Positions 1 to 14,224 of a stretch of 14,224 nt of DNA are shown in pieces. How positions within the stretch are numbered: the first letter of the stretch is position 1; the number at the start of each line of letters is the position of its first letter. The stretch lies in the IMG/VR virus record IMGVR_UViG_2565956613_000004, positions 1 to 14,224 of that record, one strand, 5' to 3'. The DNA comes from a virus. Lineage: Duplodnaviria > Heunggongvirae > Uroviricota > Caudoviricetes. The position numbers were made by a program, and so were the translations under genes. The notes beneath the pieces are model-generated. The model did no database searches. It was given only the letters and a program-made list of their open reading frames with translations, and was not told where the DNA came from.

Positions 1-63
1 CACGGTAGGAATTGTGATGGCGGCAGCACTGGGTTTGTATTCAATTTGTCGCTGGTGGTAACG

Positions 64-297
64 ATGGGAAAAATAACTTTTGTAGTCGAATTTGAGGATG
101 GCAAAGAGCCACCTGTTAGCGCCAATCTTGATGTTGCTGGTGGCAGGCTTGTTTCGGTTCTATTTGGTGACTACCGAGATGACTTCTTCCAACCAGAAGA
201 AGTTGATGTAGTGCGAGAGGCATTAAACGAGTTAAGTGTTGATAACGATGATGCTCATGCGGAAATCATCCAAAAAATGGAACTGCTAACTCACTAA
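64..297 (+). CDS. hypothetical small strongly acidic protein (77 aa from ATG 64; frame open from 46)
   Basis: ORF track 46..297; first ATG at 64 preceded by GGTGG Shine-Dalgarno-like motif; about 18 Asp/Glu versus 6 Lys/Arg; no recognisable family. Confidence 0.4.
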   Translation: MGKITFVVEFEDGKEPPVSANLDVAGGRLVSVLFGDYRDDFFQPEEVDVVREALNELSVDNDDAHAEIIQKMELLTH

Positions 298-475
298 ATT
301 ATCAATTATGGTGCTATCACCTACGACACCGAGAGAAAATTTATAATGTCAAAAGTAAATGTTTTGATTTTTTCAGCAATTGTTGGCTTTGGTTTTACTG
401 CCGGAGTGCAGATTTATATTACGTGGGAAAAAATCATCAACTACGCATGGAGTTGTTTTATTAAGTGAGGTAAGT

Positions 476-769
476 ATGTGGAGAGGTAATAGTCATGGCA
501 AAAGCCAGATGATACTTACCGAATATCAGTTTGACCATAAAACCAATAAATCACGTTCAGTATATTTGCTTCGGCACAATAGCCGCGTAAGGAATACCGT
601 GCTGGAGCAAAATCTGACTGTTGAAATAGATAATTACGGGGGCTTCAAGCCAACAATTTCGCTTGATGATTTTCCTCGTGGTTTAAGCGAAAGAGAAGCA
701 ATGCTGAAATTAGCAGAATGGCTACAAAGATTAAGCATTGCTATTGAAGATAACTGGTCTGAACCTTAA
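476..769 (+). CDS. hypothetical protein (97 aa from ATG 476)
   Basis: ORF track 380..769; in-frame ATG at 476 preceded by GAGGT 5 nt upstream; same strand and tight spacing with the following ORFs. Confidence 0.45.
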   Translation: MWRGNSHGKSQMILTEYQFDHKTNKSRSVYLLRHNSRVRNTVLEQNLTVEIDNYGGFKPTISLDDFPRGLSEREAMLKLAEWLQRLSIAIEDNWSEP

Positions 770-775
770 ATTTAT

Positions 776-1150
776 ATGATGACACTAAAACATTTTCTTG
801 ACCGCCCATTATGGGCGGCAGCCGCAGGCTATGACTTTAATTATATGGATTGCATGTCTTATACCGCCAATGCATACGACTATTCCTTCAGTCTGCTGCT
901 TAATTCTTTAAGAATATTGCCGCAAACAGAAGTTGGAGAGCTTCATTTATGGCTATTGGGCTTTATCGCGGCTGGAGTTGGTATTGCTGTATGGCCTTTT
1001 ATTTTCTGGCTGGTGGCTGTTGTAGTGTGGTTTAAGTGCAAGACGTACCGGAGAAAGTATTTCTTAGGTGATGGAATGACTGATATTGCCAAAATGAACA
1101 TTGAAAAATGGACTAAGGAATGTGAAAAGAAATGGCGCAAAAAGAAATGA
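776..1150 (+). CDS. hypothetical membrane protein (124 aa), one long hydrophobic helix and a Lys-rich C-terminus
   Basis: ORF track; hydrophobic stretch LWLLGFIAAGVGIAVWPFIFWLVAVVVWF; starts 6 nt after the previous stop and overlaps the next ORF by 19 nt. Confidence 0.5.
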   Translation: MMTLKHFLDRPLWAAAAGYDFNYMDCMSYTANAYDYSFSLLLNSLRILPQTEVGELHLWLLGFIAAGVGIAVWPFIFWLVAVVVWFKCKTYRRKYFLGDGMTDIAKMNIEKWTKECEKKWRKKK

Positions 1151-2064
1151 CCAGAATCACTGAAGAGCGTATATCAGAGATTATTTCCCGTATCGAAATG
1201 TATGGTCACGGTGCTGGATATACGGCAGATGAAGTATTGGCACTTGCCCAAATGGCTTTGGCGGCTTGCAAAGATGATAAAAAAATGAAGTTTATCGACT
1301 TGTTAGTGAAGGAACTGCCTAAGTGCGGCGGGTGGCCTGATGGAATGAGTTATTGTTACCTACCCAGTGTCAATTTAATGGCACCATGCGCGACTTTTGC
1401 TTTTGGCTCAGACCACAAAAAAGACACTTTCTTTGGGCGCAATTTTTGTTGTGAGATTGAGCTTCCAATTGGTGACCTTGATAGCGATGAATACCAGTCA
1501 GTTGTCACTCGCGAACAATACGAATCAGCTCTCATAGCGTCGCAGAAAGTCGAGTTCAATGGTGATGAACTTGAAAGTAAGACTTACAGGTTGGATTTTG
1601 GGCAATGGCTGGAACAGCAACGCGGGAAAATCGATGTGGACTGTGGTTGTGTGTCCACTGAAACATTCATGCACTGGCTGCGGGTAGCTTACGAGGCTGG
1701 CAACTATCCGGATATTCCGGATAGTTCGGTGCCAGCACCAGGAAAGGGCGTCACCGGTGAACGTATCCGAATTAAGCCGCATGTTTATCGCGAACTGGTT
1801 AACCGTCTCCACGATACAGCGATCAAGTGTGCTGGCACCCAGCAATTACGAGAAAGAATTAGCCGTGTTTTGGGCGACGTTATTACACCAGATCATCATA
1901 AACAAGCCGAGAAAAGTGGCCTGGAAAGGTGTCACCTTGAGGCGGCATTAAACATTAAGCCGGGGCATACGCTTGGCATTATTGATGCACTATTGGTTCA
2001 TAAGATGGCCAGGGCTTTATTGCCGCTGGTGGATGCTGGCGATACAAGCGAGGGTGAAGTATGA
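1132..2064 (+). CDS. hypothetical Cys-rich protein (310 aa)
   Basis: Longest ORF in the left block; several Cys pairs (FCCEIELP, DVDCGCVS); stop overlaps the next start (ATGA); no motif I recognise such as Walker A or HNH. Confidence 0.55.
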   Translation: MAQKEMTRITEERISEIISRIEMYGHGAGYTADEVLALAQMALAACKDDKKMKFIDLLVKELPKCGGWPDGMSYCYLPSVNLMAPCATFAFGSDHKKDTFFGRNFCCEIELPIGDLDSDEYQSVVTREQYESALIASQKVEFNGDELESKTYRLDFGQWLEQQRGKIDVDCGCVSTETFMHWLRVAYEAGNYPDIPDSSVPAPGKGVTGERIRIKPHVYRELVNRLHDTAIKCAGTQQLRERISRVLGDVITPDHHKQAEKSGLERCHLEAALNIKPGHTLGIIDALLVHKMARALLPLVDAGDTSEGEV

Positions 2065-2423
2065 GAGTTGCAGATCACATCAAACACCTTGAAAGAATTA
2101 TCGAAAACGGTGAACTCTTAAGAGATCAGATGAGACGCACGGCAGAAGTCAGAGAGGCGATAATCCGCAGTCAGGCTGGTAAATTAAAGCAATTATCAGA
2201 GATTAACGCGCTATACAAGAACAGACGTAACCGGGCGGCGCTGCGGCTTCAGAAAGCACGTAATGAAATTAAATTGGTGGAGGCAAAACTGAAAAAACAG
2301 ATTCAGCGTTACGATCAGCAAGATGCTTTTTATGCCGCCATCAAGGCGGCTGCTAATGAAATAGGCATCTGGAAGTTGCTGGTGGAGAAAGCAAAGACGA
2401 AGTTAAATGCCAACGAAAGCTGA
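2061..2423 (+). CDS. hypothetical charged, probably coiled-coil protein (120 aa)
   Basis: ATG overlaps the stop of the 310-aa ORF; composition rich in K/R/E/Q/A/L typical of coiled coil. Confidence 0.5.
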   Translation: MRVADHIKHLERIIENGELLRDQMRRTAEVREAIIRSQAGKLKQLSEINALYKNRRNRAALRLQKARNEIKLVEAKLKKQIQRYDQQDAFYAAIKAAANEIGIWKLLVEKAKTKLNANES

Positions 2424-2497
2424 ACTACAGGTACCCACCAGCACATACAGAAAATGATTGTTTCCACATCAAGGAGATTTTAATGTTTCACTGAACA

Positions 2498-2635
2498 TTA
2501 AGTAAGCCAGTGCATAATTCCATTTTTTACTGACCTTAAAAGCAAAATCAAAACGATGATGAGGATGATCGCCAGAATCTGGCTAATAACAGGCGCATCT
2601 AAAAATGCACTCAGGAACTGAAAAAAAGCAGTCAT
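2498..2635 (-). CDS. candidate small hydrophobic peptide (45 aa; MTAFFQFLSAFLDAPVISQILAIILIIVLILLLRSVKNGIMHWLT)
   Basis: Translated by hand from the minus strand (below the ORF-track length cutoff); ATG at 2635, TAA at 2498..2500; AGGAA about 10 nt upstream; one predicted transmembrane helix; convergent with the upstream operon. Confidence 0.3.
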   Translation of the reverse strand: MTAFFQFLSAFLDAPVISQILAIILIIVLILLLRSVKNGIMHWLT

Positions 2636-2670
2636 TAAGGTGGTTCCTTGTCAAATGTAAAGGAGCACTT

Positions 2671-2739
2671 GCTCACGTTGACGTAGAAACCCAACCCCTA
2701 TATAGTTGGATTCGGTGAAAGAAAGTCGTTAACGTGAGC
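2671..2739. repeat. nested inverted repeat: 13-bp arms GCTCACGTTGACG / CGTTAACGTGAGC (12 of 13) enclosing an inner CCAAC...GTTGG palindrome
   Basis: Read directly from the sequence; lies in the 660-bp non-coding gap immediately upstream (minus-strand sense) of the 45-aa ORF. Confidence 0.4.
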
Positions 2740-3084
2740 TTACGGCACATGTTTTCGGAACAACATCAGGGAACGGCTAATTCCTTGATGCGGATGGGGT
2801 CTGTAATGCAGACCCTATCTATTAACGTCATGATTGCATCTCAAATTTTCTCCTTATCTTCATTAATCAAAATTCATTTCATTTGTGAAACATCACAATA
2901 TTTAGAAAATGGCCCTCTTGCAAGTGCATAACTTTGTGGATAAATCAGGAAGAAAAAAGTTGATTCTGCGCACGGCAAGGCAGATAAGCTGTGCACAAAA
3001 ATCAATGGGAAAAGAAAAAAAATTAAAAGTTACTTTGCTGGTTAAATAATAGTCGTTACGCAATTGTTCTGGATGGGATTTGAT

Positions 3085-3336
3085 ATGCACGATTGGAATA
3101 TTGCAGCTAAAAGTCAGGAAGAACGGGATAAGGTTAACGTTGATCTGGCTGCCAGCGGTGTGGCGTACAAAGAGCGATTGAACATACCTGTCATAGCTGA
3201 ACAGGTAGCCCGCGAGCAACCAGAGAATCTGCGCACCTATTTCATGGAACGGTTACGGCACTATCGGCAGTTAAGCCTCCAGTTGCCAAAAGGGAGCGAT
3301 CCGGTGTATCAGAACGAGGATGCACCAAAAAAATAA
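3085..3336 (+). CDS. hot: Hot, homolog of DNA polymerase III theta subunit (HolE)
   Basis: Segment [43 protein letters not shown] aligns with E. coli HolE ([43 protein letters not shown]); start placed at the ATG giving MHDWNIAAK (ORF track opens at a TTG at 3064). Confidence 0.8.
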
Positions 3337-3421
3337 CGGCAAGATGGGGGAGAAATGTGATTAGCCCCCAGCGTGGCGCGCCTACAAACCCCGCTTTCAC
3401 AAACTATGCCTTTTCAATGTA

Positions 3422-3441
3422 TACTGTATGAATAAACAGTA
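3422..3441. promoter_or_regulatory. LexA (SOS) box TACTGTATGAATAAACAGTA overlapping a TATACT -10 element
   Basis: CTGT-N8-ACAG with flanking TA, about 17 of 20 matches to the consensus TACTGTATATATATACAGTA; sits 19 bp upstream of the humD start codon. Confidence 0.75.
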
Positions 3442-3459
3442 TCATTGAGGTAAAACGCT

Positions 3460-3849
3460 ATGGGCTTCCCTTCTCCTGCGGCGGATTATGTTGAAAGCCG
3501 AATTTCTCTTGATCAGCAGATAATTAGACATCCTTCAGCGACCTACTTCATGCGGGCAGCTGATAGCCATCACCGTGAGGGAATATTGCAGGGTGCTTTG
3601 CTGGTGGTTGATTCCTCGCTTACTCCGGTTGATGGTTCTCTGCTTGTGTGCGCTATGGAGGGTGAATATCGCATAAAGAGATACAGGAAGTATCCGCGCC
3701 AGCACCTGGAGGATTTAAGCACCGGGAAGAAAGAGGCGTTACCAGTAGATGACGATGGATACACGGGCAGTAATGCTGTTTTTGGTGTGATCACTCATGT
3801 CATCAATGATGCCCGAAGTGGGGAATTTGATGATTGTCCGGTTATTTAA
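3460..3849 (+). CDS. humD: HumD, UmuD'-like translesion-synthesis accessory protein encoded in the already-processed form
   Basis: N-terminus [30 protein letters not shown] matches UmuD' starting at Gly25 ([29 protein letters not shown]); FGVITHV matches UmuD FGVVIHV; GAGG RBS; LexA box upstream. Confidence 0.85.
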   Translation: [129 protein letters not shown]

Positions 3850-3884
3850 GCTGCAAAGTGCTGGTGCTTTATGCCTGTGAAGTT

Positions 3885-3915
3885 TATAATTGTGTACACA
3901 TAACGAGTACACGAG
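3885..3915 (+). promoter_or_regulatory. phd-doc promoter with palindromic autoregulatory operator (TATAAT followed by TGTGTACACA and GAGTACAC)
   Basis: TATAAT at 3885..3890; perfect 10-bp palindrome TGTGTACACA at 3891..3900 and a related GTACAC half-site just before the phd RBS, consistent with known Phd/Doc autorepression. Confidence 0.55.
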
Positions 3916-3921
3916 GTGTTT

Positions 3922-4143
3922 ATGCAATCCATTAACTTCCGTACCGCGCGTGGCAACCTTTCTGAAGTGCTCAACAATGTTGAAGCCGGGGAAGAGGTTG
4001 AAATCACCCGCAGAGGCCGTGAGCCAGCAGTAATTGTCAGCAAGGCTACTTTCGAAGCCTACAAAAAAGCGGCGCTGGATGCTGAATTTGCATCCCTGTT
4101 TGACACCCTGGACTCCACCAACAAGGAACTGGTTAACCGATAA
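3922..4143 (+). CDS. phd: Phd antitoxin (prevent host death), 73 aa
   Basis: [49 protein letters not shown]... recognised as P1 Phd; GAGG RBS before ATG 3922 (ORF track opens at an upstream GTG); stop overlaps the doc start (TAATG). Confidence 0.85.
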
Positions 4144-4523
4144 TGAGGCATATATCACCGGAAGAACTTATTGCGCTTCATGATGCGAATATAAGCCGCT
4201 ACGGCGGCCTGCCGGGAATGTCTGATCCGGGTAGGGCAGAGGCCATTATCGGGAGAGTTCAGGCCAGAGTTGCCTACGAAGAGATCACCGACCTTTTCGA
4301 AGTCTCCGCCACCTACCTGGTGGCTACAGCGAGAGGGCATATATTCAATGATGCCAATAAGCGTACCGCGCTAAACAGTGCGCTGCTATTTCTACGCCGT
4401 AACGGGGTGCAGGTATTTGATTCACCTGAACTGGCAGACCTTACTGTAGGCGCTGCGACTGGCGAGATATCTGTATCTTCTGTCGCCGACACGTTACGTA
4501 GATTGTATGGTTCTGCGGAGTAG
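4143..4523 (+). CDS. doc: Doc toxin (death on curing), Fic-fold kinase, 126 aa
   Basis: Fic-type motif [11 protein letters not shown]; size and position right after phd with a 1-nt overlap; sequence recognised as P1 Doc. Confidence 0.9.
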
Positions 4524-4527
4524 ATTA

Positions 4528-4707
4528 ATGGCACGCAAATACAACAAATTGTCCCGTGAAGCGTTAAAGATGCTTCTTGATGGCGCGAGTCGCCGCAAGG
4601 TAAAGCAATACCTGGTTGGTAAGCAAATTGGAGTCAGGACCGCTATTGCTGTGTTATGCCGTCAGGAAATGGTTGTGCTTAAACAGAGAATGCCGGGCAG
4701 CAGATAA
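4528..4707 (+). CDS. pdcA: small basic protein, PdcA-like (post-doc), 59 aa from ATG 4528
   Basis: ORF track 4507..4707; the ATG at 4528 lies 5 nt after the doc stop with GGAG 8 nt upstream; assignment as pdcA is by position in the P1 gene order as I recall it. Confidence 0.45.
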   Translation: MARKYNKLSREALKMLLDGASRRKVKQYLVGKQIGVRTAIAVLCRQEMVVLKQRMPGSR

Positions 4708-4734
4708 AGCCCAATCAGTGATTAAAGGTGTGAT

Positions 4735-5778
4735 GTGAAAGCCGTAATTACTCCCTTTGTACAGAAAGAGCTTGGCCTCGCCACGTTCAAAGTGGATCAG
4801 GAGGTCAGAAAGCTGGTGGAGGCTGGCCGTAAATTTATTATGGAGCCGGTGCCGCGTGAGTTAATCGAGCACATGGAAGACGGCCTCGTTGTTACCGAGC
4901 AAACCATGGCAACAAATGAGGCGTTGCAGCCGTTTTTTAACAGCGATGAACTGTTTCGCCGTATTGGTGGAATTGACGCGCTGGTGGCGTGGTTGCGTAG
5001 GAAAGAGGGTCAATGCCAGGCCGCAGATCGTAGTTGGTGTGACAACCATATTGTCCACGCTGAACGAGACAATAGCGCGGTGTTGTTGTGCTGGCATCAC
5101 GATAACCATTACCGGATGCGTGGTTTTAATGAGCTGAAAGAAACGCTGCACAATAATCGCGTTAACTGGATACTGGATGTCGCCCGTCAGGAAATGGGCC
5201 TTTCAAATAGCCATGATTTAAGTATTCAGGAGCTGTGCTGGTGGGCTTTCATGCGCAACATGATGCACCTGATGCCGGAAGAAGTCTGCCGCATATCAAT
5301 AAATAAGATGAAGGCTACTCCGCAGGATAGCGGACCTCTGAAAGAGGCGGATATTCGCCCGTATGACGATCGCGCTACAGCATATGTTCAGATGATGGAA
5401 GAACGCGCCGCGCCGATGCGTGCAAAAGTATGCCCTGTGGATGTTGACGCCGACCCTGGCATGGCGCATTTCAAAATACCAAAACTTCAATCGCTAAAAT
5501 TGCCCGAGTACATGGATTTTGTGGCTTCCCGTCCATGCTGTGGCTGTGGAGCTGCGGGAGCTGGCGCTCACATTACGCCTTATATCGTTCGTCATAGTCG
5601 ATTATGCGCGCATGACATTTATGCTGTTCCTCTGTGCCAGTCATGCCAGCGTGATATTGAGCGTGACCGCGATAATTGGGAGAAGACGCACGGTAGGCTG
5701 GCGATGCATCAACGATTGTTCTTTGATTACGCGCTTGGAGTCGGCGCTATCACAAGTCATTCGTCGAGCGTTAGATAA
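4735..5778 (+). CDS. pdcB: PdcB-like protein with two Cys/His-rich putative zinc-binding clusters, 347 aa
   Basis: GTG start with AAGGTG 4 nt upstream; clusters [25 protein letters not shown] and CCGCG...H...C.HD...PLCQSCQ suggest a zinc-finger or HNH-like nucleic-acid-binding fold; name from recalled P1 gene order. Confidence 0.65.
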
Positions 5779-5779
5779 A

Positions 5780-5796
5780 ATTGCTCTAATGTATTG
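5780..5796 (+). promoter_or_regulatory. C1 repressor operator-like site ATTGCTCTAATGTATTG upstream of lpa
   Basis: 13 of 17 match to the P1 C1 operator consensus ATTGCTCTAATAAATTT; lpa is known to be C1-controlled in P1. Confidence 0.6.
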
Positions 5797-5866
5797 CTAT
5801 TTCTTTAATCGAGGGTATTATATTCGACGTTGATTAGTTGACATGGGCTAATCAGTAGGTGACAGG

Positions 5867-6319
5867 ATGTTACTTAACTGGCAGGGACGCCACTTCATGG
5901 AAATAAATCACTCACGAATAACATCGTACGAGATTGCGGATTACATGATCCGCACTAAATCTCTTCTATCAGCGAAAGATCTCGCAGCAATTCTTGAAAA
6001 GGAATACCCGCATCTGGATGTCGATAAGCGCGATGTTTATCTGCGCTTAAAGGCTATCGCTGTGTCTAAGTATTCGTCTGTTTTGATTGATGACAGTACA
6101 CGCCCACGTAGATTTCAGATCCACTCTCTGAATCCTGAATTCTTTCGCCGCAGCCGCGCTCCGCGCCGGTTTGATGAAAAACTCCAGAACGAACTCTATA
6201 TGACGCAGGACGAAAAGGAACGCCGGGAGCACCAGCCTTGGGTGATGGCGCGTCAACTTTTCAATAAGGTGGTCCGTCAGCACCGTCATTACGGTAATGC
6301 CACATCCGCACGTATCTGA
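5867..6319 (+). CDS. lpa: Lpa, late promoter activator (gp10)
   Basis: 150-aa ORF with AGGTGA RBS, located between pdcB and pacA behind a C1 operator as in P1; sequence recalled as P1 Lpa, less certain than cre or c1. Confidence 0.65.
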   Translation: MLLNWQGRHFMEINHSRITSYEIADYMIRTKSLLSAKDLAAILEKEYPHLDVDKRDVYLRLKAIAVSKYSSVLIDDSTRPRRFQIHSLNPEFFRRSRAPRRFDEKLQNELYMTQDEKERREHQPWVMARQLFNKVVRQHRHYGNATSARI

Positions 6320-6405
6320 TTGATTGCTTGCCCGTTCCGGGCCTTTTGACATGTGACTTTCGTTACCCTCGCGTCAAAAAGAGTTTTATACGAAAGGAAG
6401 CATAA

Positions 6406-7599
6406 GTGACCTGGGACGATCACAAGAAGAATTTTGCTCGCCTGGCGCGAGATGGTGGTTACACCATCGCACAATATGCCGCCGAGTTTAATCTCAACCC
6501 AAACACCGCACGTCGTTATCTCCGTGCATTCAAAGAAGACACCGGAACAGCGGACAGCCGTAAGCCAAATAAGCCTGTCAGAAAACCACTAAAAAGCATG
6601 ATCATTGATCACGCTAATGATCAACGTGCAGGTGATCACATTGTGGCTGAAATGGCTGAAAAACAAAGAGTTAATGCTGTTGTCAGTGCCGCAGTCGAGA
6701 ACGCGAAGCGCCAGAATAAGCGCATAAATGATCGTTCTGATGATCATGACGTGATCACCCGCGCCCACCGGACCTTACGTGATCGCCTGGAACGCGACAC
6801 CCTGGATGATGATGGTGAACGCTTTGAATTCGAAGCTGGCGATTACCTGATAGATAACGTTGAAGCGCGGAAGGCCGCGCGCGCTATGTTGCGTCGGTCC
6901 GGGGCCGATGTTCTGGAAACCACTCTTCTGGAAAAGTCTCTTTCTCATCTCCTTATGCTGGAGAACGCCAGGGATACGTGTATTCGCCTGGTGCAGGAAA
7001 TGCGCGATCAGCAAAAAGACGATGATGAAGGTACTCCGCCTGAATACCGTATCGCGAGCATGCTAAACAGCTGTTCCGCGCAGATAAGCAGCCTGATCAA
7101 CACCATTTACAGCATCCGGAATAACTATCGAAAAGAAAGCCGGGAGGCGGAAAAGCACGCTTTGTCTATGGGGCAAGCTGGCATTGTTAAGCTGGCATAC
7201 GAACGAAAGCGTGAAAATAACTGGTCAGTGCTGGAAGCAGCTGAATTCATCGAGGCGCATGGCGGGAAAGTGCCGCCCCTGATGCTGGAGCAAATCAAAG
7301 CCGATCTGCGTGCTCCTAAGACCAATACCGATGATGAGGAAAGGCAAACAGCCGTCGGTGGCCCTTCTCTTGAAGATCTGGACAAAGTTGCGCGAGAACG
7401 GGCCGCCAACCGCCGCGCCGATGCCGCATTGTGGATTGAGCAGCGTAGGGAAGAAATCGCCGATATCGTTGATACAGGCGGTTATGGAGATGTTGATACT
7501 GAAGGTGTATCAAACGACCCATGGCTGGAACAAGACCTGGACGAAGACGAGGAGGAAGACGAAGAAGTTACCCGCAAGCTATACGGGGATGATGATTAA
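6406..7599 (+). CDS. pacA: PacA, terminase small (pac-recognition) subunit, 397 aa
   Basis: GTG start with AAGGAAG RBS; contains the pac hexamer clusters internally; acidic C-terminal tail ([11 protein letters not shown]); stop overlaps the pacB start. Confidence 0.9.
6599..6757. other. pac packaging site: four TGATCA hexamers (6599, 6606, 6618, 6633) and three TGATC(A/G) hexamers (6729, 6741, 6752) flanking the cleavage region
   Basis: Hexamers read directly from the sequence; the 4 + 3 arrangement over about 160 bp inside pacA matches the known Dam-methylation-sensitive P1 pac site. Confidence 0.8.
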
Positions 7600-9083
7600 T
7601 GGCCAGAAGTTGCGTAACGGATCCACGTTGGCGCGAGCTGGTGGCGCTATATCGTTATGACTGGATTGCGGCCGCTGATGTTTTGTTCGGCAAAACACCT
7701 ACCTGGCAGCAGGATCTGATTATTGAGTCTGTGCAGGAACAGGGTAGCAAGACATCTGTTTCGTCTGGTCACGGTACCGGGAAATCAGACATGACTTCTA
7801 TCATGATCATGTTGTTCATAATCATGTATCCAGGTGCCCGTGCCATTATCGTTGCGAACAAAATTCAGCAGGTAATGACCGGTATATTCAAGTACATCAA
7901 GATAAACTGGGCTACTGCCACCAGCCGTTTCCCATGGCTTGCTGATTATTTTGTTCTGACAGAAACCGCTTTCTATGAGATTACTGGTAAAGGTGTATGG
8001 ACTGTAGTACCGAAGGGCTTTCGTCTGGGAAGTGAAGAAGCTCTCGCCGGTGAACACGCAGATCATCTTCTGTATATTATCGATGAAGCCTCCGGTGTCA
8101 GTGATAGAGCTTTCGGTATCATCACCGGTGCTCTTACCGGACAGGATAACCGCATCTTATTGCTGTCACAGCCTACACGCCCAAGCGGCTATTTCTACGA
8201 TACACACCATAAACTGGCCAAGCGTCCTGGTAACCCTGATGGCGTTTATACGGCGATCACGCTTAACAGTGAGGAATCACCGTTGGTAACGCCAGCATTT
8301 ATCAAAATGAAGCTGGCGGAGTACGGCGGGCGTGATAACCCTATGTACATGATTAAGGTACGCGGCCTATTCCCTAAATCACAGGATGGCTTCCTTCTTG
8401 GACGTGATGAGGTTGAACGTGCAACGCGGCGGAAAGTCAAGATTGCAAAAGGATGGGGCTGGCTTGCATGTGTGGACGTTGCTGGTGGTACGGGACGGGA
8501 TAAGTCCGTTATCAATATCATGATGGTGTCCGGCCAGCGAAATAAACGCCGTGTAATCAACTATCGAATGCTGGAATACACAGACGTTACAGAAACGCAG
8601 CTTGCCGCCAAAATTTTCGCAGAATGTAATCCTGAGCGATTCCCAAATATCACCATAGCGATAGACGGCGATGGCCTGGGTAAAGCAACGGCGGATCTGA
8701 TGTACGAGTATTATGGTATTACCGTACAGCGTATACGCTGGGGTAAAAAGATGCATAGCCGTGAAGATAAGAGCCTGTACTTTGATAAACGTGCTTATGC
8801 CAACGTTCAAGCCGCAGAGGCCGTAAAATCTGGTCGTATGAGACTGGATAAGGGTAATGAAACTATTGAGGAAGCGTCGAAAATCCCTGTAGGGATTAAC
8901 TCCGCAGGTCAATGGAAGGTGATGAGTAAGGAGGATATGAAGAAAAAACTCAACCTGCACTCACCAGACCATTGGGATACATATTGTTTCGCTATGCTGG
9001 CTGATTATGTTCCCCAGGATGAAGTGCTTAGCGTCGAAGACGAAGCGCAGGTTGATGAAGCTCTGGCATGGCTTAATGAATAA
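7599..9083 (+). CDS. pacB: PacB, terminase large subunit, 494 aa
   Basis: P-loop-like [10 protein letters not shown] near the N-terminus; ATG overlaps the pacA stop (TAATG); size and position as for P1 PacB. Confidence 0.9.
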
Positions 9084-9107
9084 CTCATTGACCATGCCGG
9101 ATAGAAA

Positions 9108-9959
9108 CTATTGCGCGCTTTCGGGGTTGTCGTTTACTGGCTGCCCCTTCTTAGTTTTACGGCTGCGCGTAACTGATGCGGCTGATTTGACCTTTTTCTC
9201 TTCGCGAGTGATGGCAATTTGTTTTTTTACATTTTCAATATCTGCCAGGCGATATATTTTTGCCTGCGGCCAGCGGTCGCAGATGATCGGTTCTATAGAG
9301 TCATAAAGGCTAAATTTTGCTTTCTCGAATTCACCGTTGATGATGATTCCATCACGGAGAGTTTCATCGCAGATAAACACACCACACAGCGGCACATGGT
9401 AACTAACTGATTTACCATCATTGTAGTTAGGGCTACTGGAAATGTAGTGGACGCGCAGCATTGTTTCGCTAAAGCCGTGTACACGCATACGGAATTTTTC
9501 ATCCTCCGGGTACTGCTTCATTAGCTCTTTTGTTGCTTCCAGGTTCTCTATGTATTTCGCACTGTGCTCATTGATCCCCGCGCTTTTCTGGATGCGAATG
9601 TCCTTATCAATCAGATGAATAATGCGGCCAGCGGTCATGTTGACGCTGTTCACAGCTTCTGTCTGATAAGTCGTAACCTTACGCACACCGCGAAGGATGT
9701 TAGGCACAGGATATAAAATAGTCTTTGGGATATTGAGGTCTGGGTACTGTTCCAGTTCCCGCGCCATTAAAGTCCATTTATCAATTTCAGCCTGAATGCT
9801 GTCCGTTTCTTTGAACGGTAGAACGACAACCGGGCGTACAGGACGACCGTCGCTGGCGGCATCAACGTGTTGGGCGCGTGCAACAGCTTTTTTTAGAAAG
9901 AGATCCCTGAAGCTGACGAACTCCTGGTACAGTTGTTCGCCGTAGACATAATTTATCAT
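9108..9959 (-). CDS. c1: C1 repressor of lysis (primary immunity repressor), 283 aa
   Basis: 283-aa protein beginning MINYVYGEQLYQEFVSFRDLF recognised as P1 C1; GGAGGAGGA RBS; preceded by coi and operator sites; matching operators occur elsewhere in the window. Confidence 0.9.
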   Translation of the reverse strand: MINYVYGEQLYQEFVSFRDLFLKKAVARAQHVDAASDGRPVRPVVVLPFKETDSIQAEIDKWTLMARELEQYPDLNIPKTILYPVPNILRGVRKVTTYQTEAVNSVNMTAGRIIHLIDKDIRIQKSAGINEHSAKYIENLEATKELMKQYPEDEKFRMRVHGFSETMLRVHYISSSPNYNDGKSVSYHVPLCGVFICDETLRDGIIINGEFEKAKFSLYDSIEPIICDRWPQAKIYRLADIENVKKQIAITREEKKVKSAASVTRSRKTKKGQPVNDNPESAQ

Positions 9960-9981
9960 TGATCCTCCTCCAGAATTGACA

Positions 9982-10024
9982 TGGCCAACAACTCACAGCG
10001 GATTACACTGGGAGTTGTTGGCCA
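9982..10024. repeat. perfect 13-bp inverted repeat TGGCCAACAACTC / GAGTTGTTGGCCA with a 17-nt loop, between coi and c1
   Basis: Read directly; lies in the coi-c1 intercistronic region just upstream of the c1 RBS; no T-run follows on either strand. Confidence 0.4.
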
Positions 10025-10069
10025 CCATTATAGAAGGATCCAACGAAAATAATAGATTTATTAGTGCAT

Positions 10070-10279
10070 TTATTGTGAGTCTGGCTGGTTAGTGGCCATG
10101 AGATATTCGATTGTGTCAGTGAGATCATCCAGGTCGTCTTGGGTGATGCGGTACTCCTGATTGGATATCTTTGAGTAGTGTTCAGCAATGGCGCGGGCAG
10201 CGTCGGTTTCGGCAGGGTCTACAGATAAAGCGTTAGAGCAATGTCTAACGTCGTCGATGGTTGGTGGAATGAAAGCCAT
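10070..10279 (-). CDS. coi: Coi, C1 inactivator, 69 aa
   Basis: 69-aa ORF directly upstream of c1 on the same strand, downstream of operator sites; size and sequence recalled as P1 Coi. Confidence 0.8.
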   Translation of the reverse strand: MAFIPPTIDDVRHCSNALSVDPAETDAARAIAEHYSKISNQEYRITQDDLDDLTDTIEYLMATNQPDSQ

Positions 10280-10517
10280 AATTATGCCTCACTGTATTGA
10301 CAACACAGAGCCTGAAGCTCTGACCTACTGTTTCACCCATGATCCATGCTGGGGTAATCTAACAACATTGCGCTGTGTGTAAGATGAGCAATGCATAGCT
10401 GTAATGCCGTTGTATAAGGTTTCCCTGTTTGCTCATTTCCTTCTGAGCCGCTCTACAACGCTGAAGACACATTAAATAGTGAATCCAAAGTCGTATTACG
10501 AAACGGCGGCAAAACTA

Positions 10518-10534
10518 TAATTTATTAGAGCAAT
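10518..10534 (-). promoter_or_regulatory. C1 operator (Op99-type), minus-strand sense ATTGCTCTAATAAATTA
   Basis: 16 of 17 match to the C1 operator consensus; about 240 bp upstream of the coi start. Confidence 0.65.
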
Positions 10535-10600
10535 TGTCAAACAACTATGAAAAACAATCCAGTTTTTGGCTGGTGGAGTGGGATTTTTCTCTCAAAATTT

Positions 10601-10617
10601 ATTGCTCTAATAATTCT
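10601..10617 (+). promoter_or_regulatory. C1 operator (Op99-type) ATTGCTCTAATAATTCT
   Basis: 14 of 17 match to consensus; opposite orientation to the site at 10518, in the coi/c1 control region. Confidence 0.6.
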
Positions 10618-10729
10618 TGATTTTTATGCGCAGCTGGACGTAAACTCCTCTTCGGGCCCTTAAGGGTTATTGAACATGATTAATTTACCTGTAAATCCAT
10701 ACAGTTCAATACCTTATCAGGTCAAATAG

Positions 10730-10751
10730 TGATCACTTGATCATTTGATCA
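10730..10751. promoter_or_regulatory. three TGATCA (Dam GATC) hexamers phased 8 bp apart in the cre upstream region
   Basis: TGATCActTGATCAttTGATCA read directly; a Dam-regulated cre promoter is described for P1 (recalled). Confidence 0.5.
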
Positions 10752-10756
10752 AGGTT

Positions 10757-10815
10757 GCGCTACGTAAAATCTGCGAAATGTTGGCAGTGTTAGTGCTCCA
10801 GATTTCGCGTAGCGC
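10757..10815. repeat. imperfect 17-bp inverted repeat GCGCTACGTAAAATCTG ... CAGATTTCGCGTAGCGC (15 of 17), 25-bp spacer
   Basis: Read directly; ends about 30 bp upstream of the RBS of the 73-aa ORF; no T-run, so more likely a protein-binding site or RNA structure than a terminator. Confidence 0.4.
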
Positions 10816-10847
10816 ACTTAGCACCACCAATCAATCAGAGGTGAAAA

Positions 10848-11069
10848 ATGGGATATTCAGCTGCTAAAGTGTCCACTCATATTGAGCTTGAGAAAAACCG
10901 TGGTTACTGGCGGGCAAAAGGGTTTGATCGTGATAGTTGTCAACTGTCATTATCGCGCGGTGAAGAGAAAATAGAACGCACGCGCGGTCGCTGGCGTTTC
11001 TATGACGAGAACCATAAACAGGTAAAGGCAGAGCCGATCCTGTACACTTTACTTAAAACCATTATCTGA
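10848..11069 (+). CDS. hypothetical 73-aa protein immediately upstream of cre
   Basis: ATG with AGAGGTG RBS at optimal spacing; stop 7 nt before the cre ATG, suggesting co-transcription; no recognisable family. Confidence 0.45.
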   Translation: MGYSAAKVSTHIELEKNRGYWRAKGFDRDSCQLSLSRGEEKIERTRGRWRFYDENHKQVKAEPILYTLLKTII

Positions 11070-11076
11070 GTGTTAA

Positions 11077-12108
11077 ATGTCCAATTTACTGACCGTACAC
11101 CAAAATTTGCCTGCATTACCGGTCGATGCAACGAGTGATGAGGTTCGCAAGAACCTGATGGACATGTTCAGGGATCGCCAGGCGTTTTCTGAGCATACCT
11201 GGAAAATGCTTCTGTCCGTTTGCCGGTCGTGGGCGGCATGGTGCAAGTTGAATAACCGGAAATGGTTTCCCGCAGAACCTGAAGATGTTCGCGATTATCT
11301 TCTATATCTTCAGGCGCGCGGTCTGGCAGTAAAAACTATCCAGCAACATTTGGGCCAGCTAAACATGCTTCATCGTCGGTCCGGGCTGCCACGACCAAGT
11401 GACAGTAATGCTGTTTCACTGGTCATGCGACGGATCCGAAAAGAAAACGTTGATGCCGGTGAACGTGCAAAACAGGCACTGGCGTTCGAACGCACTGATT
11501 TCGACCAGGTTCGTTCACTCATGGAAAATAGCGATCGCTGCCAGGATATACGTAATCTGGCATTTCTGGGGATTGCTTATAACACCCTGTTACGTATAGC
11601 CGAAATTTCCAGGATCAGGGTTAAAGATATCTCACGTACTGACGGTGGGAGAATGTTAATCCATATTGGCAGAACGAAAACGCTGGTTAGCACCGCTGGT
11701 GTAGAGAAGGCACTTAGCCTGGGGGTAACTAAACTGGTTGAGCGATGGATTTCTGTCTCTGGTGTAGCTGATGATCCGAATAACTACCTGTTTTGCCGCG
11801 TCAGAAAAAATGGTGTTGCCGCTCCATCATCCACCAGCCAGCTATCAACTCGCGCCCTGGAAGGGATTTTTGAAGCAACTCACCGATTGATTTACGGGGC
11901 AAAAGATGACTCTGGTCAGCGATACCTGGCCTGGTCTGGACATAGTGCCCGTGTCGGTGCCGCGCGAGATATGGCCCGAGCCGGAGTTTCTATACCGGAG
12001 ATCATGCAAGCTGGTGGCTGGACCAACGTAAATATTGTCATGAACTACATTCGTAACCTGGATAGTGAAACGGGGGCAATGGTGCGCCTGCTGGAAGATG
12101 GCGATTAG
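11077..12108 (+). CDS. cre: Cre tyrosine site-specific recombinase, 343 aa
   Basis: Near-identical to P1 Cre as I recall it (MSNLLTVHQNLPALPVDATSDEVRKNLMDMFRDRQAFSEHTWKMLLSVCRSWAAWCK...); C-terminal catalytic region with HSARVGAARDMARAG and GGWTNVNIVMNYIRNLDSE; differs from my recalled P1 sequence at two positions (IAEISRIRV, APSSTSQ). Confidence 0.97.
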   Translation: MSNLLTVHQNLPALPVDATSDEVRKNLMDMFRDRQAFSEHTWKMLLSVCRSWAAWCKLNNRKWFPAEPEDVRDYLLYLQARGLAVKTIQQHLGQLNMLHRRSGLPRPSDSNAVSLVMRRIRKENVDAGERAKQALAFERTDFDQVRSLMENSDRCQDIRNLAFLGIAYNTLLRIAEISRIRVKDISRTDGGRMLIHIGRTKTLVSTAGVEKALSLGVTKLVERWISVSGVADDPNNYLFCRVRKNGVAAPSSTSQLSTRALEGIFEATHRLIYGAKDDSGQRYLAWSGHSARVGAARDMARAGVSIPEIMQAGGWTNVNIVMNYIRNLDSETGAMVRLLEDGD

Positions 12109-12125
12109 CCGTTCATTTGCTCTTT

Positions 12126-12142
12126 ATTGCTCTAATTATTTG
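12126..12142 (+). promoter_or_regulatory. C1 operator-like site ATTGCTCTAATTATTTG with a partial copy (ATTTGCTCT) just upstream
   Basis: 14 of 17 match to consensus; 18 bp after the cre stop and 17 bp before the 103-aa ORF; resembles the Op2 arrangement that controls ref in P1. Confidence 0.55.
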
Positions 12143-12158
12143 ATATTTATGGTTACAC

Positions 12159-12470
12159 ATGCGGAAGGATTTCAAAATAGACGGAAAATATGTGGTGCTG
12201 TCTGTAAGCTCTCAAATTCAGTCACCATCTGTCATTGTCACCGTAAAGTTGAGCGATAGGATGCCTGATATCGACTCGATATCTGTTGCGTTCCCCGTTA
12301 AAAGCATGCGGAGTGCTGAACATTTTGTGATGAATGCAACGGAGGAGGAAGCACGGCGCGGGCTTACTAGAGTGATGGCGGAATTTGGCGAACTCCTGGG
12401 TAAGGTAAACAATGCCCTTTCAATCAGTTCAGCAAGATCCAAAGCGTTAACAGCTTCCATGATGAAATAA
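12159..12470 (+). CDS. hypothetical 103-aa protein behind a C1 operator (no Cys, one His)
   Basis: ORF track; ends immediately before the hairpin at 12476..12496; weak RBS; preferred over the overlapping minus-strand ORF, which needs a TTG start and spans the hairpin. Confidence 0.4.
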   Translation: MRKDFKIDGKYVVLSVSSQIQSPSVIVTVKLSDRMPDIDSISVAFPVKSMRSAEHFVMNATEEEARRGLTRVMAEFGELLGKVNNALSISSARSKALTASMMK

Positions 12471-12475
12471 AAAAA

Positions 12476-12496
12476 AGCCTGGCAAGGAGCCAGGCT
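12476..12496 (-). terminator. rho-independent terminator for the minus-strand antirepressor-like transcript (stem AGCCTGGC / GCCAGGCT, loop AAGGA, U-run on the minus strand)
   Basis: Plus strand reads A8-GCCTGGC-AAGGA-GCCAGGC; on the minus strand the hairpin is followed by a T8 run; on the plus strand no T-run follows. Confidence 0.5.
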
Positions 12497-12618
12497 GCAC
12501 AAAAGAGCGGGGTTGTATTCCGCATCCAATCAATCAAGAAGGAGTATAGCACACAGGTACTGAAGAGAAAAAATGTGATTCGCGATAGATAAAATAGCCA
12601 CTATTGTTATAATTAATT

Positions 12619-12699
12619 GCCATAATTGAGTTATGGCTTTAGTCAACTACGAAGACATTGCCATTATAGACTCCGTGACATCATTGGCGGCCGAAAGGC
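12619..12699 (+). ncRNA. candidate ~80-nt small RNA: extended -10 promoter (TGTTATAAT at 12605..12613), 5' hairpin GCCATAA-TTGAG-TTATGGC, 3' intrinsic terminator
   Basis: All elements read directly; no convincing ORF (the 72-aa ORF 12633..12851 runs through the terminator); complementary to the 3' UTR of the convergent minus-strand mRNA. Not tested. Confidence 0.2.
12676..12699 (+). terminator. strong rho-independent terminator on the plus strand (GGCGGCC-GAAA-GGCCGCC followed by TTTTTT)
   Basis: Perfect 7-bp GC stem with GAAA tetraloop and a T6 run, read directly; ends the cre-side transcription unit and/or a short transcript from the promoter at 12605..12613. Confidence 0.7.
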
Positions 12700-12711
12700 C
12701 GCCTTTTTTAA

Positions 12712-13770
12712 TCATTCAGCCGCCACCGGTTTTAACAAGCCAGCATCGAGCAGTTTACGCGTCAACCACTGTTGGCCTTTCCCCGTTAATTGAGGCGTCA
12801 GCCGTATCTGATAGCCATCTTCATCATCCAGCACCACTTCTTTCACTGTGAAATATCCGGCGTTTATGTACTGCTGAAACGGTACATTTTTACGTCCGCC
12901 GGACGCAATCAGGATGCCGTTCTCCCGTAACCAGGTAAACAACGCGTTTTGCTTAAGCCCAACAACCTTTGCAAAATTTCCAATCAGGATCCCCTTGGCC
13001 CCTGATACCCGGTCGGCAAAATCGACTTTAGGGGCGGCGGCCACCAGCTGCTGATTTAGCTGGTGGGCTTTCTGTTCCAGAAGTTGCTTTTGTTCAGCCA
13101 GCTCGGCAGCCAGGCGCAGAGCTTCGGGGAGTGTTTGGGGAATCACTGGAGAAGCAGTGCTAGCCTGCTGCAATTCCTCCAGTTTGTCGATCAGCGAACG
13201 GCGGACCGCTTTTGACTCGCGCGCGGCAACTCTCAGGGCTTGTTTGTAGGTCATGGAGATAGTTTCAGATGTTGTGTTGTTTAATTTTTGCACTACGAAA
13301 ATTTCGTAGTACTCACCATCCAGTTCATCCTTAACTCTGGCAATAAAATCATTATTGCGAACTGGTTTTTCGCTACATAATTTCCGCGCTTCATTGACCA
13401 TCTTTAACAGCGTCTGGCTGTCGATTGTGTCTCCGGTGTTGGGGATAGCATCCATGGCCGTTGCTGGTGTGGTTGCTGTCAAAGGCTTTGTAACGACAAC
13501 ATCTGGTTTGCTTGCTTTCATTCTGTGTGCCTCCTTGCGTGTTTCGGCTGCGACGGTTGCGTAATTCAGATGCCCCTGTTCGAGCAGGTATTCGCGAATA
13601 TCAGACAGCAGGATACGGTGAACCGCGTTCTTGTCCTTTCTCCGGTAAAGTTGTTTGGTGATCATGAAGTAGTTGGCAATAACACCCGGTATATCCCTGG
13701 TACTGATACAGGCAGTGTGCTGTTCAATTGCCTCAATCATCTCTTCACGGGTGACTAATGACGTTCTCAT
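12712..13770 (-). CDS. antirepressor-like protein with a C-terminal KilA-C/ANT-type domain, 352 aa
   Basis: Strong GGAGGG RBS 4 nt before the ATG; C-terminal segment FADRVSGAKGILIGNFAKVVGLKQNALFTWLRENGIL...NVPFQQYINAGYFTVKEV...TPQLTGKGQQWL resembles phage antirepressor C-terminal (KilA-C/ANT) domains; the N-terminal ~80 aa may be Rha-like, which is uncertain. Confidence 0.75.
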   Translation of the reverse strand: MRTSLVTREEMIEAIEQHTACISTRDIPGVIANYFMITKQLYRRKDKNAVHRILLSDIREYLLEQGHLNYATVAAETRKEAHRMKASKPDVVVTKPLTATTPATAMDAIPNTGDTIDSQTLLKMVNEARKLCSEKPVRNNDFIARVKDELDGEYYEIFVVQKLNNTTSETISMTYKQALRVAARESKAVRRSLIDKLEELQQASTASPVIPQTLPEALRLAAELAEQKQLLEQKAHQLNQQLVAAAPKVDFADRVSGAKGILIGNFAKVVGLKQNALFTWLRENGILIASGGRKNVPFQQYINAGYFTVKEVVLDDEDGYQIRLTPQLTGKGQQWLTRKLLDAGLLKPVAAE

Positions 13771-13988
13771 AGTCCCTCCTGAGCAGAAGCGTTAACAGGG
13801 AGGCACCAGTAACTGAGAGAATTGCGCGAATCGGTAGAAAAACGGGCGGAGAAAATGCAGGGAGCATCCGGAAGCTGAGAACGTGCCTCATCTTCTGTTG
13901 GTGCGATAACGAAGTGATAGTGACGTTTTTGACAAGAATAGAAGCGCCAGATGAATTCAGGGCGTGCGCAAGGATTGGCATTAACCAT
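13767..13988 (-). CDS. possible 73-aa ORF upstream of and overlapping (ATGA) the antirepressor-like gene
   Basis: ORF track; GAGG 9 nt upstream of the ATG; the stop overlapping the downstream ATG is forced by the frame, so support is weak. Confidence 0.25.
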   Translation of the reverse strand: MVNANPCARPEFIWRFYSCQKRHYHFVIAPTEDEARSQLPDAPCIFSARFSTDSRNSLSYWCLPVNASAQEGL

Positions 13989-14224
13989 AGTTACGGCCTC
14001 ACTAACAGGTTTAACAACCTGCTACCCGCTGCTAAACAGGTGGCAGGACGTGACGGGGTTAGCAGACTGGCGTTAGTGAAACCAGCAGGCCGAAGCCTCC
14101 CCATCACGCCCCACCATAATTTGGGCGTAACGCGGTTTTACGGACACAAAAATACCGCAATATCGGATATCTGCGGTTGTCCACACTAACATTCAGGCTG
14201 CTAAACCCGGTCGCAGAATTTGCT

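Follow-up and report, generated by a model that had tools for sequence, protein, structure and literature searches.

The window analyzed here, that is, the whole stretch of 14,224 nucleotides at positions 1 to 14,224 of the IMG/VR virus record IMGVR_UViG_2565956613_000004 (Caudoviricetes), is of the P1-type phage-plasmid kind and encodes Cre, C1, PacA/PacB, Phd/Doc, HumD, and Hot. Between the end of pmgV (2423) and the ATG of hot (3085) lies a gap that is 99% identical to phage P1. In this gap, we identified a cassette of ~540 bp (~2434–2973) in which a minus-strand open reading frame (ORF) for a 45-residue hydrophobic peptide, here termed ORF45, appears to be combined with a structured RNA encoded opposite the peptide's leader. 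That a real peptide gene and a cis-antisense structured RNA lie here, whatever the role of the peptide, is in our judgment probable. The narrower reading that we favor, tentatively, is a type I toxin–antitoxin (TA)-like pair with an ldr/rdl-type layout, because the peptide would stand behind a long leader, a stronger antisense promoter lies inside that leader, and the small RNA (sRNA) would cover the untranslated region (UTR) and not the start codon. An initial annotation of the same DNA had picked out the ORF (2498–2635, minus strand), an inverted repeat (2671–2739), and a hairpin (2797–2815), all of which were found at those positions. The main gain of the present analysis, judged by sequence, is that a strongly constrained, putatively antisense RNA locus and an opposing nrdA-type promoter make a lone hydrophobic ORF a coherent cassette.

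The gap occurs in three lineages, and the comparative power of all that follows is that of three lineages only. These are the window/P1 type, a P7 type (~96% identical), and a diverged type (pRHB27-C18_2, pESA118_2) that is ~78% identical over the gap and ~81% identical over the whole segment 2436–3314. The peptide gene and its ribosome-binding site are placed as follows:

2498–2635, minus strand: ORF45, from the ATG start through the stop codon, encoding MTAFFQFLSAFLDAPVISQILAIILIIVLILLLRSVKNGIMHWLT
2646–2650, minus strand: Shine–Dalgarno (SD) sequence AAGGA of ORF45, 9 nt before the AUG (GAGGA at 8 nt in the diverged allele)

ORF45 falls within the size and hydrophobicity range of type I toxins (< ~60 residues with a predicted transmembrane (TM) helix), with a grand average of hydropathy (GRAVY) of 1.62 and a highest 19-residue Kyte–Doolittle window of 3.08. 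Its layout comprises a short N-terminal helix, a break at D13-A14-P15, a long hydrophobic helix, and a basic/aromatic tail (R34, K37, H42, W43). The initial annotation had described almost a single TM helix with a basic/aromatic tail. The hydrophobic helix and the tail stand, and AlphaFold2, run on the single sequence (mean confidence score, pLDDT, of 88), adds a short helix at residues 2–12 before the D13-A14 break, with the long helix at residues 15–44. The initial annotation had also allowed that the ORF could be chance, which now looks improbable, as an equally hydrophobic ORF is rare in shuffled sequence and the frame is intact in every allele. Specifically, among 3000 dinucleotide-preserving shuffles of 2424–3084, an ATG-initiated ORF of ≥40 residues with a GRAVY of ≥1.5 arose in 0.23%, and in none together with an SD sequence; the hydrophobicity of ORF45 is therefore not a composition artifact.

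The frame is also maintained among relatives. An intact 45-codon ORF45 was found in all 53 IMG/VR loci, which represent five alleles, and the 15 metagenome loci match it over 44–45 residues. Neither indels nor length changes occur in ORF45 among the alleles of the window, P1, the P7 type, and the diverged type; in the alignment with the last of these, the flanks carry at least six indel events. In the diverged allele, 31 of 138 nt are changed (77.5% identity), while the start, the stop, the 45 codons, and the SD are unchanged, the SD being retained despite flanking substitutions and a 1-nt deletion. The replacements are conservative (I/V/L/F, R/K) and hydrophobicity is kept. When substitutions with the same transition and transversion counts were simulated at random, ORF45 stayed intact in 17% of trials, and 16% of those intact frames were as similar as the observed one (joint P ~0.03). 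Taken alone, the coding constraint estimated from these sequences is only moderate. Together, several lines agree, none of them decisive, and suggest a real-looking conserved small membrane-protein gene.

ORF45 is missing from the annotation of the P1 record AF234172 and of the older record M95666. Automated pipelines name it 'hypothetical protein' (JL22 gp107, SJ46 J46_0085, and WP_000123562.1 from the NCBI annotation pipeline PGAP). PGAP calls it for the window-type allele only (WP_000123562.1), leaving the intact P7-type and diverged alleles uncalled, and the window-type and P7-type sequences are absent from a 15-billion-protein collection. Public assemblies hold frameshifted or truncated variants (P0001–P0004), for which a real change and an assembly error in an A-run are both possible. 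In pIPCEC31_2 (NZ_AP026785.1, ~400–1165), an IS1 lies beside or within the 3' end of ORF45, and that ORF is WP_170988307.1.

Upstream of ORF45 on its own strand lies the part of the gap under the strongest constraint:

2673–2863, no strand assigned: very well conserved non-coding block, more constrained than the rest of the gap when the window is aligned with the pRHB27-type allele

Only 18 of the 193 alignment columns of this block differ, and over 2673–2758 only 2 of 86. In the same alignment, ORF45 is 77.5% identical and the flanks 43–64%. The hot gene of the same divergent segment has a proportion of synonymous differences (pS) of 0.40, a synonymous divergence (dS) of 0.56, and a nonsynonymous divergence (dN) of 0.056, and the pS of ORF45 is 0.36. 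The block has thus diverged by 2–9%, compared with 36–40% at the synonymous sites of hot and ORF45 (binomial P 1e-15 to 1e-19). Across 23 complete E. coli plasmid records, it is 90–95% identical, compared with 60–80% for ORF45. Two frames of 21 and 25 residues on the minus strand inside the block were considered as coding candidates and rejected; they lack an SD, and changes in them track RNA pairing, not codons.

Two elements mark the left part of the block:

2678–2706, plus strand: near-consensus sigma-70 promoter, TTGACG (2678–2683), 17-nt spacer, TATAGT (2701–2706), 10 of 12 matches
2671–2739, minus strand: nested inverted repeat with arms 2671–2683 and 2727–2739 (13 nt, 92% complementary) and an inner CCAAC/GTTGG stem

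The promoter is the best promoter-like site of the region, with a predicted start at ~G2714. Both of its hexamers are unchanged in all alleles, and AF234172 carries it as the predicted promoter 'PupfN'. The inverted repeat folds with z ~ −4.6 on both strands, with G·U pairs in the inner stem on the minus strand only. As its left arm precedes the predicted start of the plus-strand RNA and the repeat spans the plus-strand promoter, the only RNA in which it can fold is the minus-strand leader; otherwise, it would act at the level of the DNA.

Downstream of the promoter, the plus strand is predicted to form a compact RNA:

2714–2858, plus strand: predicted structured RNA of ~145 nt, or ~110 nt if the end follows SL3 at ~2823
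2714–2726 with 2845–2858, plus strand: predicted closing helix, 12 bp
2727–2757, plus strand: predicted stem-loop SL1, weaker
2764–2773 with 2781–2790, plus strand: predicted SL2, 10 bp
2792–2804 with 2808–2820, plus strand: predicted SL3, 11–13 bp, extending the perfect hairpin GGGTCTG-TAATG-CAGACCC at 2797–2815

The hairpin seen by the initial annotation is indeed perfect, and it is longer than had been noted, at 11–13 bp. Folding of 2713–2860 gave −49.4 kcal/mol on the plus strand (z −4.3 against shuffles) compared with −35.5 kcal/mol on the minus strand (z −2.3), and folding of 2713–2825 gave −43.8 compared with −30.2 kcal/mol; the plus strand of 2762–2822 alone reached z = −6.8 against shuffles. 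This bias of ~14 kcal/mol toward the plus strand arises because several G·U pairs would be A·C mismatches on the minus strand. The substitutions are consistent with such a fold. A compensatory change from U-A to C-G occurs at 2800/2812 in SL3 (the lone clean compensatory pair), SL2 has changed only in its loop and at its closing base pair, A2794 is G in P1 and P7, where it gives a G·U pair, and the end of the conserved block (2863) coincides with the end of the closing helix (2858). The U-tract after SL3 is weak (UAUCUAUU), which makes the 3' end of the predicted RNA uncertain. Pairing of the RNA in trans with the start region of ORF45 had a predicted energy no better than that of shuffles.

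On the opposite strand, the peptide gene is preceded by a predicted promoter homologous to that of a host gene:

2894–2922, minus strand: nrdA-type promoter placed by homology, −35 TTGCAA (2922–2917), 17-nt spacer, −10 TATTGT (2899–2894)
2936–2944, minus strand: DnaA box matching the consensus (TTATCCACA), preceding the nrdA-type promoter and unchanged across all alleles and in E. coli
2837–2856, minus strand: leader SD UAAGGAG (2856–2850), very strong and within the conserved block, followed by an AUG (2839–2837)

Over its 115 nt, the segment 2905–3019 shares 83% identity with the sequence that precedes nrdA in E. coli, and M95666 already lists an 'nrdA-like promoter' and a DnaA box on the complement strand (window ~2904–2959). 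A core, TTATCCACAAAGTTATGCACTTGCAA, is identical in E. coli and includes the −35 hexamer as well as the DnaA box and another element that resembles one. In the shared orientation, nrdA falls to the left and on the minus strand, as ORF45 does. The similarity stops at the −10 hexamer, whose E. coli counterpart is TATCTT; past it, the cassette leader and ORF45 follow here, and not nrdA. Homology to E. coli PnrdA, itself a proven promoter, therefore covers the −35 hexamer, the DnaA box, and the orientation, and promoter activity is predicted. The hexamers were placed by this homology and by the published nrdA transcription start, ~110 nt upstream of the nrdA ATG. The predicted minus-strand start at ~2887 would give a leader of ~250 nt ahead of ORF45. 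The two promoters thus converge, and positions ~+30 to +174 of this leader would be perfectly complementary to the plus-strand RNA.

The AUG at 2839 opens a three-codon frame (MQS*) in the window and an AUG-UAA start–stop in the diverged allele; with its SD, it is a candidate leader ORF or standby ribosome site, which the plus-strand RNA would cover if it reaches ≥2856. The G-G-A core of the SD of ORF45 itself had a pairing probability of ~0.9–1.0 at most positions in predicted full-length leaders of three alleles, in long-range folds that are unreliable at 330 nt. A consensus fold of the leader contains a weak, fold-based anti-SD helix that is partly compensatory (GUUCC:GGAAC to AUACC:GG-AU). 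The structured, possibly antisense-encoding flank proposed in the initial annotation has become the strongest signal of the gap, being a near-invariant block with its own plus-strand promoter and a plus-biased fold, antisense to the leader predicted from the nrdA-like promoter. The check that it proposed, for conservation of the peptide and hairpins in related plasmids, showed an intact ORF45 frame in all alleles and an SL3 carrying the compensatory change at 2800/2812.

The nrdA-like segment also occurs by itself, being the only part of the gap matched in ~90 of the 317 plasmid records discussed below. In two IncFIB phage-plasmids of ~110 kb, L118 (NZ_CP020118.1, ~1395–1630 and 1007–1090, minus strand) and L119, the same promoter core lies upstream of a gene homologous to humD and is directed at ~80 nt of sequence that ends in a strong bidirectional terminator (AAAAAGCCCAG...CTGGGCTTTTT), possibly an sRNA. 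Beyond this terminator lies an unrelated 27-residue ORF (MVNLLFKIVPPMFAIIKAIIEYVNQRP) with an SD and its own terminator.

Both the peptide and its DNA were found in P1-like elements of Escherichia, Salmonella, and Shigella only. Some part of the gap was matched in 317 plasmid records and most of it in ~226. The conserved block was present in 216 of 5426 complete E. coli genomes, where every copy except one is plasmid-borne. Further carriers were 53 IMG/VR contigs, for which each of three conserved DNA words returned the identical set of loci, and 15 metagenome contigs, which were retrieved with the back-translated peptide and hold the same three alleles. Among species-representative genomes, the DNA word was unmatched and peptide relatives were unconfirmed. 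Distant relatives of the peptide were found neither in a word-indexed search of 5.8 billion proteins nor in a full HMMER scan of 1.84 billion representatives, and the large protein searches yielded only truncated or frameshifted forms of it.

ORF45 and the block occur together (217 and 218 records, respectively; 215 and 216 of the 5426 complete E. coli genomes). Their surroundings vary, with hot replaced in P7-type elements, a restriction–modification gene upstream in pRHB27-C18_2, and IS1 alongside in pIPCEC31_2, and the gap region is among the variable regions of P1-like elements (PMC9603915). By this comparison, the cassette appears to move as a unit in P1-family phage-plasmids.

The sequence features, the conservation pattern, the strand-biased fold, and the promoter homology are direct observations; from them we infer transcription of both strands, translation of ORF45, control of one RNA by the other, and toxicity of the peptide. 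In such a mechanism, the promoter derived from or homologous to that of host nrdA, with its DnaA box, would start an mRNA near 2887, with a leader of ~250 nt followed by ORF45. The convergent sigma-70 promoter inside the leader would produce a compact RNA of 110–145 nt perfectly complementary to it. This RNA, if abundant, would pair with the leader and either cover the standby site formed by the strong SD and mini-ORF or trigger cleavage of the duplex. The SD of ORF45 would be folded away in the leader, and together with the antisense pairing this would keep peptide synthesis off. Were the antisense RNA or the cassette lost or outpaced, the peptide would be made and would insert in the inner membrane. 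The most elaborate version, in which a second RNA-controlled addiction or abortive module of a new type I family sits beside phd/doc, is conceivable but in our view unlikely as a whole. In that version, a captured nrdA promoter with DnaA boxes would wire peptide synthesis to the replication and nucleotide status of the cell, a multi-helix antisense RNA of 110–145 nt would block a start–stop/strong-SD standby site in the leader, and the upf genes would be artifacts of annotation over this RNA locus.

Of the known systems, ldr/rdl comes closest in layout. Like it, the cassette places a small hydrophobic peptide after a long 5' UTR in a unit of ~0.5 kb, the LDR unit of E. coli being ~0.5 kb, and ORF45 shares the local motif L-x-A-P-V-I-x-x-I-L-A (8/15 identities by BLASTP). 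In ldr/rdl, the antisense RNA is encoded across from the 5' UTR and not from the start codon, and its real target has been suggested to be a small leader ORF/SD (PMC4147584). Membership of ORF45 in the Ldr family, suspected from the motif, was rejected, as the BLASTP E value was 0.001 for the pair alone and the hhalign probability 7.2%. With Pfam PF13940 (Ldr_toxin), the three ORF45 alleles were unmatched at E up to 10, whereas LdrA, LdrB, and LdrD score 86–94 bits. The Ldr/Fst signature has a charged cluster behind a conserved Trp that directly follows the TM helix (PMC2887945). In ORF45, by contrast, two or three basic residues precede the invariant W43, which stands at the very C-terminus with no charged cluster behind it. 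ORF45 further differs in having 45 rather than 35 residues, and the predicted RNA in having 110–145 nt and three or four helices rather than ~60 nt, with no Rfam RdlD match; the cassette is phage-plasmid-borne, whereas ldr/rdl is chromosomal.

The hok/sok family (with pnd and srnB) offers a second comparison. Shared features are a mobile-element cassette of ~0.5–0.6 kb, a strong antisense promoter within the leader, a long structured toxin-mRNA leader with a sequestered SD (here by prediction), and a plausible plasmid-stabilization role, the present cassette adjoining another addiction module. The differences are that ORF45 has no Hok/Gef match in Pfam or NCBIfam and no Cys-containing periplasmic domain, that no Sok or hok-mRNA Rfam match was found here, and that there is no overlapping mok-like frame, the sole leader ORF being of one to three codons ~200 nt upstream. 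In both ldr/rdl and hok/sok, the sRNA is thought to work via a leader ORF or standby site (PMC4147584). A third group, tisB/istR-1, zorO/orzO, and dinQ/agrB, has sRNAs that target the 5' UTR far upstream of a sequestered toxin ribosome-binding site (PMC4147584), and the strong upstream ribosome-loading site here is likewise a candidate target. Here, however, the sRNA would be fully cis-antisense and convergent, whereas in those systems the arrangement is divergent and the complementarity short. Nor is the promoter LexA-controlled, being of the nrdA type with a DnaA box, and no sequence similarity was found. The type I toxin pattern invoked by the initial annotation holds for size and hydrophobicity and, by prediction, for layout, and does not extend to a match with any known toxin or Rfam family. 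By these searches, ORF45 is placed outside every known toxin family and, if functional, would found its own family confined to P1-like phage-plasmids.

Several points weigh against the type I TA-like reading. ORF45 had no significant match in PHROGs, Pfam, NCBIfam, or the PADLOC profiles (the best PHROG match was phrog_1184, of unknown function, at E = 0.056), and neither it nor the RNA showed homology to a known type I toxin or antitoxin RNA. The ratio of nonsynonymous to synonymous divergence (dN/dS) of ORF45, 0.45 at a dS of 0.49, is not significantly below 1 (Fisher p = 0.09). With three lineages only and one clean compensatory pair, the covariation is thin. A sequence scan found no clear intrinsic terminator for either predicted transcript, and the plus-strand RNA, if it reads through, could simply be a leader of hot. 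Recombination mosaicism could account for some of the fine-scale pattern of conserved and diverged patches, because backbone genes of the same plasmids are 93–96% identical. The gap region appears dispensable for P1 lytic growth, which is compatible with the proposal and lends it no support: CRISPR interference work lists upfN and upfO, two genes annotated in the gap, as non-essential for lytic growth, with a third, upfM, untargeted there (PMC10695390), and a deletion survey, as cited in that paper, lists all three as non-essential for lytic growth. Finally, our literature search found no paper on the gap locus, on what the upf genes do, on mapped P1 transcripts of this region, or on the protein accessions.

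The alternative that survives best, although we consider it rather unlikely, is that ORF45 is a genuine membrane protein under antisense or leader control that is not a toxin. It could be a lysogenic-conversion, superinfection-exclusion, or membrane-modulator peptide with expression tied to replication status via the nrdA-type promoter. All of the gene and RNA evidence fits such a peptide equally well, and ORF45 carries neither the Ldr/Fst signature nor a toxin-family match. P1, moreover, already has phd/doc ~0.8 kb away, and many E. coli small membrane proteins of ~30–50 residues are modulators and not toxins, which we counted in favor of this alternative. A convergent strong sRNA promoter within a long leader is, however, typical of type I TA loci (PMC4147584), and the extreme constraint on the RNA block would be expected if loss of repression were lethal.

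Somewhat less likely again is that only the plus-strand RNA is functional, as a trans-acting sRNA or as a structured 5' leader of hot or of whatever lies downstream, with ORF45 a fortuitous frame on a T-rich strand. The block is far better conserved than ORF45, no convincing terminator follows SL3, and hot begins 370 nt downstream in two of the three lineages. The nonsignificant dN/dS of ORF45 points the same way, as do the absence of two of its three main alleles from the 15-billion-protein collection and the omission of the P7-type and diverged alleles by PGAP. A fortuitous frame is nevertheless hard to reconcile with a start, stop, length, SD, and hydrophobicity that survive 31 substitutions without an indel next to flanks that have many. 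The hydrophobicity is not a composition effect, and ORF45 and the block always occur together. The P7-type elements further disfavor a dedicated hot leader, as hot has been replaced in them and PGAP calls no downstream gene on the plus strand.

We regard as improbable an explanation without a functional RNA, in which the block is a DNA-level element (a convergent-promoter regulatory or protein-binding site, a DnaA or replication site, or a single-strand initiation-type structure) or a by-product of mosaicism. Placed on either side of the promoter, the 13-bp arms of the inverted repeat resemble an operator pair, and DnaA boxes and the nrdA-type promoter adjoin the block. Given the 93–96% identity of the backbone, a block of 91–98% identity could also be a patch of backbone age within an older allele. 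The block, however, differs from every other allele, and its changes respect the RNA structure (the compensatory pair and loop-only changes in SL2). DNA-duplex sites would leave its strongly strand-asymmetric fold unexplained, and patches that alternate on a scale of 40–200 bp are better explained by differential constraint than by multiple crossovers. The gap contains no C1 operator.

The annotation of the gap in AF234172 consists of plus-strand genes, several predicted promoters, and the late promoter LPhot. The genes are:

2605–2718, plus strand: upfM (AF234172 annotation)
2734–2931, plus strand: upfN (AF234172 annotation)
2909–3049, plus strand: upfO (AF234172 annotation)

All three failed a test of frame maintenance among diverged relatives. 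In the diverged allele (pRHB27-C18_2, pESA118_2), they contain stops or frameshifts even in near-invariant DNA, and UpfN and UpfO are also altered in frame or sequence in P7-type elements. As the frames are broken where the DNA is almost invariant, the conservation there is not of plus-strand protein-coding origin, and upfM, upfN, and upfO are probably not genes. That this reference annotation is correct and the gap encodes UpfM, UpfN, and UpfO is very improbable, even though the genes stand in both AF234172 and NC_005856, UpfM owns PHROG phrog_31823, and UpfO resembles E. coli 'YpaB', since the frames are broken as described, support from an SD or from a family (Pfam, NCBIfam) is lacking, and the PHROG and YpaB matches reflect only DNA conservation of the RNA and promoter region. 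E. coli 'ypaB', the counterpart of upfO, overlies the nrdA promoter and DnaA boxes, and upfM, upfN, upfO, and ypaB are probably all annotation artifacts. The initial statement that the gap has no long ORF is roughly right; mechanical ORFs of 65 residues (plus strand, GTG start), 46 residues (plus strand), and 105 residues (minus strand, overlapping hot) do exist, none of them conserved.

Phage P1 is both a classic model and a workhorse tool. Its P1-like phage-plasmid relatives, often with resistance genes, occur in ~4% of complete E. coli genomes (216/5426). A working pair in the gap would give these elements a second stabilization or stress module. It would also represent a new toxin family and a new sRNA family, and would mean that a host replication-linked nrdA promoter with its DnaA box has been recruited for a mobile-element gene. 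The reference annotation would be corrected, with upfM, upfN, and upfO not genes. Even at the minimal reading, the gap would hold an unannotated non-coding RNA locus under very strong constraint.

Elsewhere in the window, a known antisense RNA was recovered:

14036–14121, minus strand: c4, the antisense RNA of the immI region of P1 (RF01695 in Rfam; 70 bits, E = 3e-12)

This was the sole Rfam match of the window; on either strand of the gap, Rfam gave zero matches at gathering thresholds and at E up to 10. Downstream of the gap, the interval between hot and humD differs from that of P1, in which the 573-nt LexA-regulated lxr (minus strand) sits between the two genes. In the window lineage, lxr is not present, and the end of hot (3336) and the start of humD (3460) are separated by 123 nt (3337–3459). 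Five matches to the C1 operator consensus ATTGCTCTAATAAATTT with ≤3 mismatches were found in the window, compared with 0.1 expected by chance, the best ones lying upstream of c1/coi:

10518–10534, minus strand: C1 operator match
10601–10617, plus strand: C1 operator match
10054–10070, minus strand: C1 operator match
12126–12142, plus strand: C1 operator match
5780–5796, plus strand: C1 operator match

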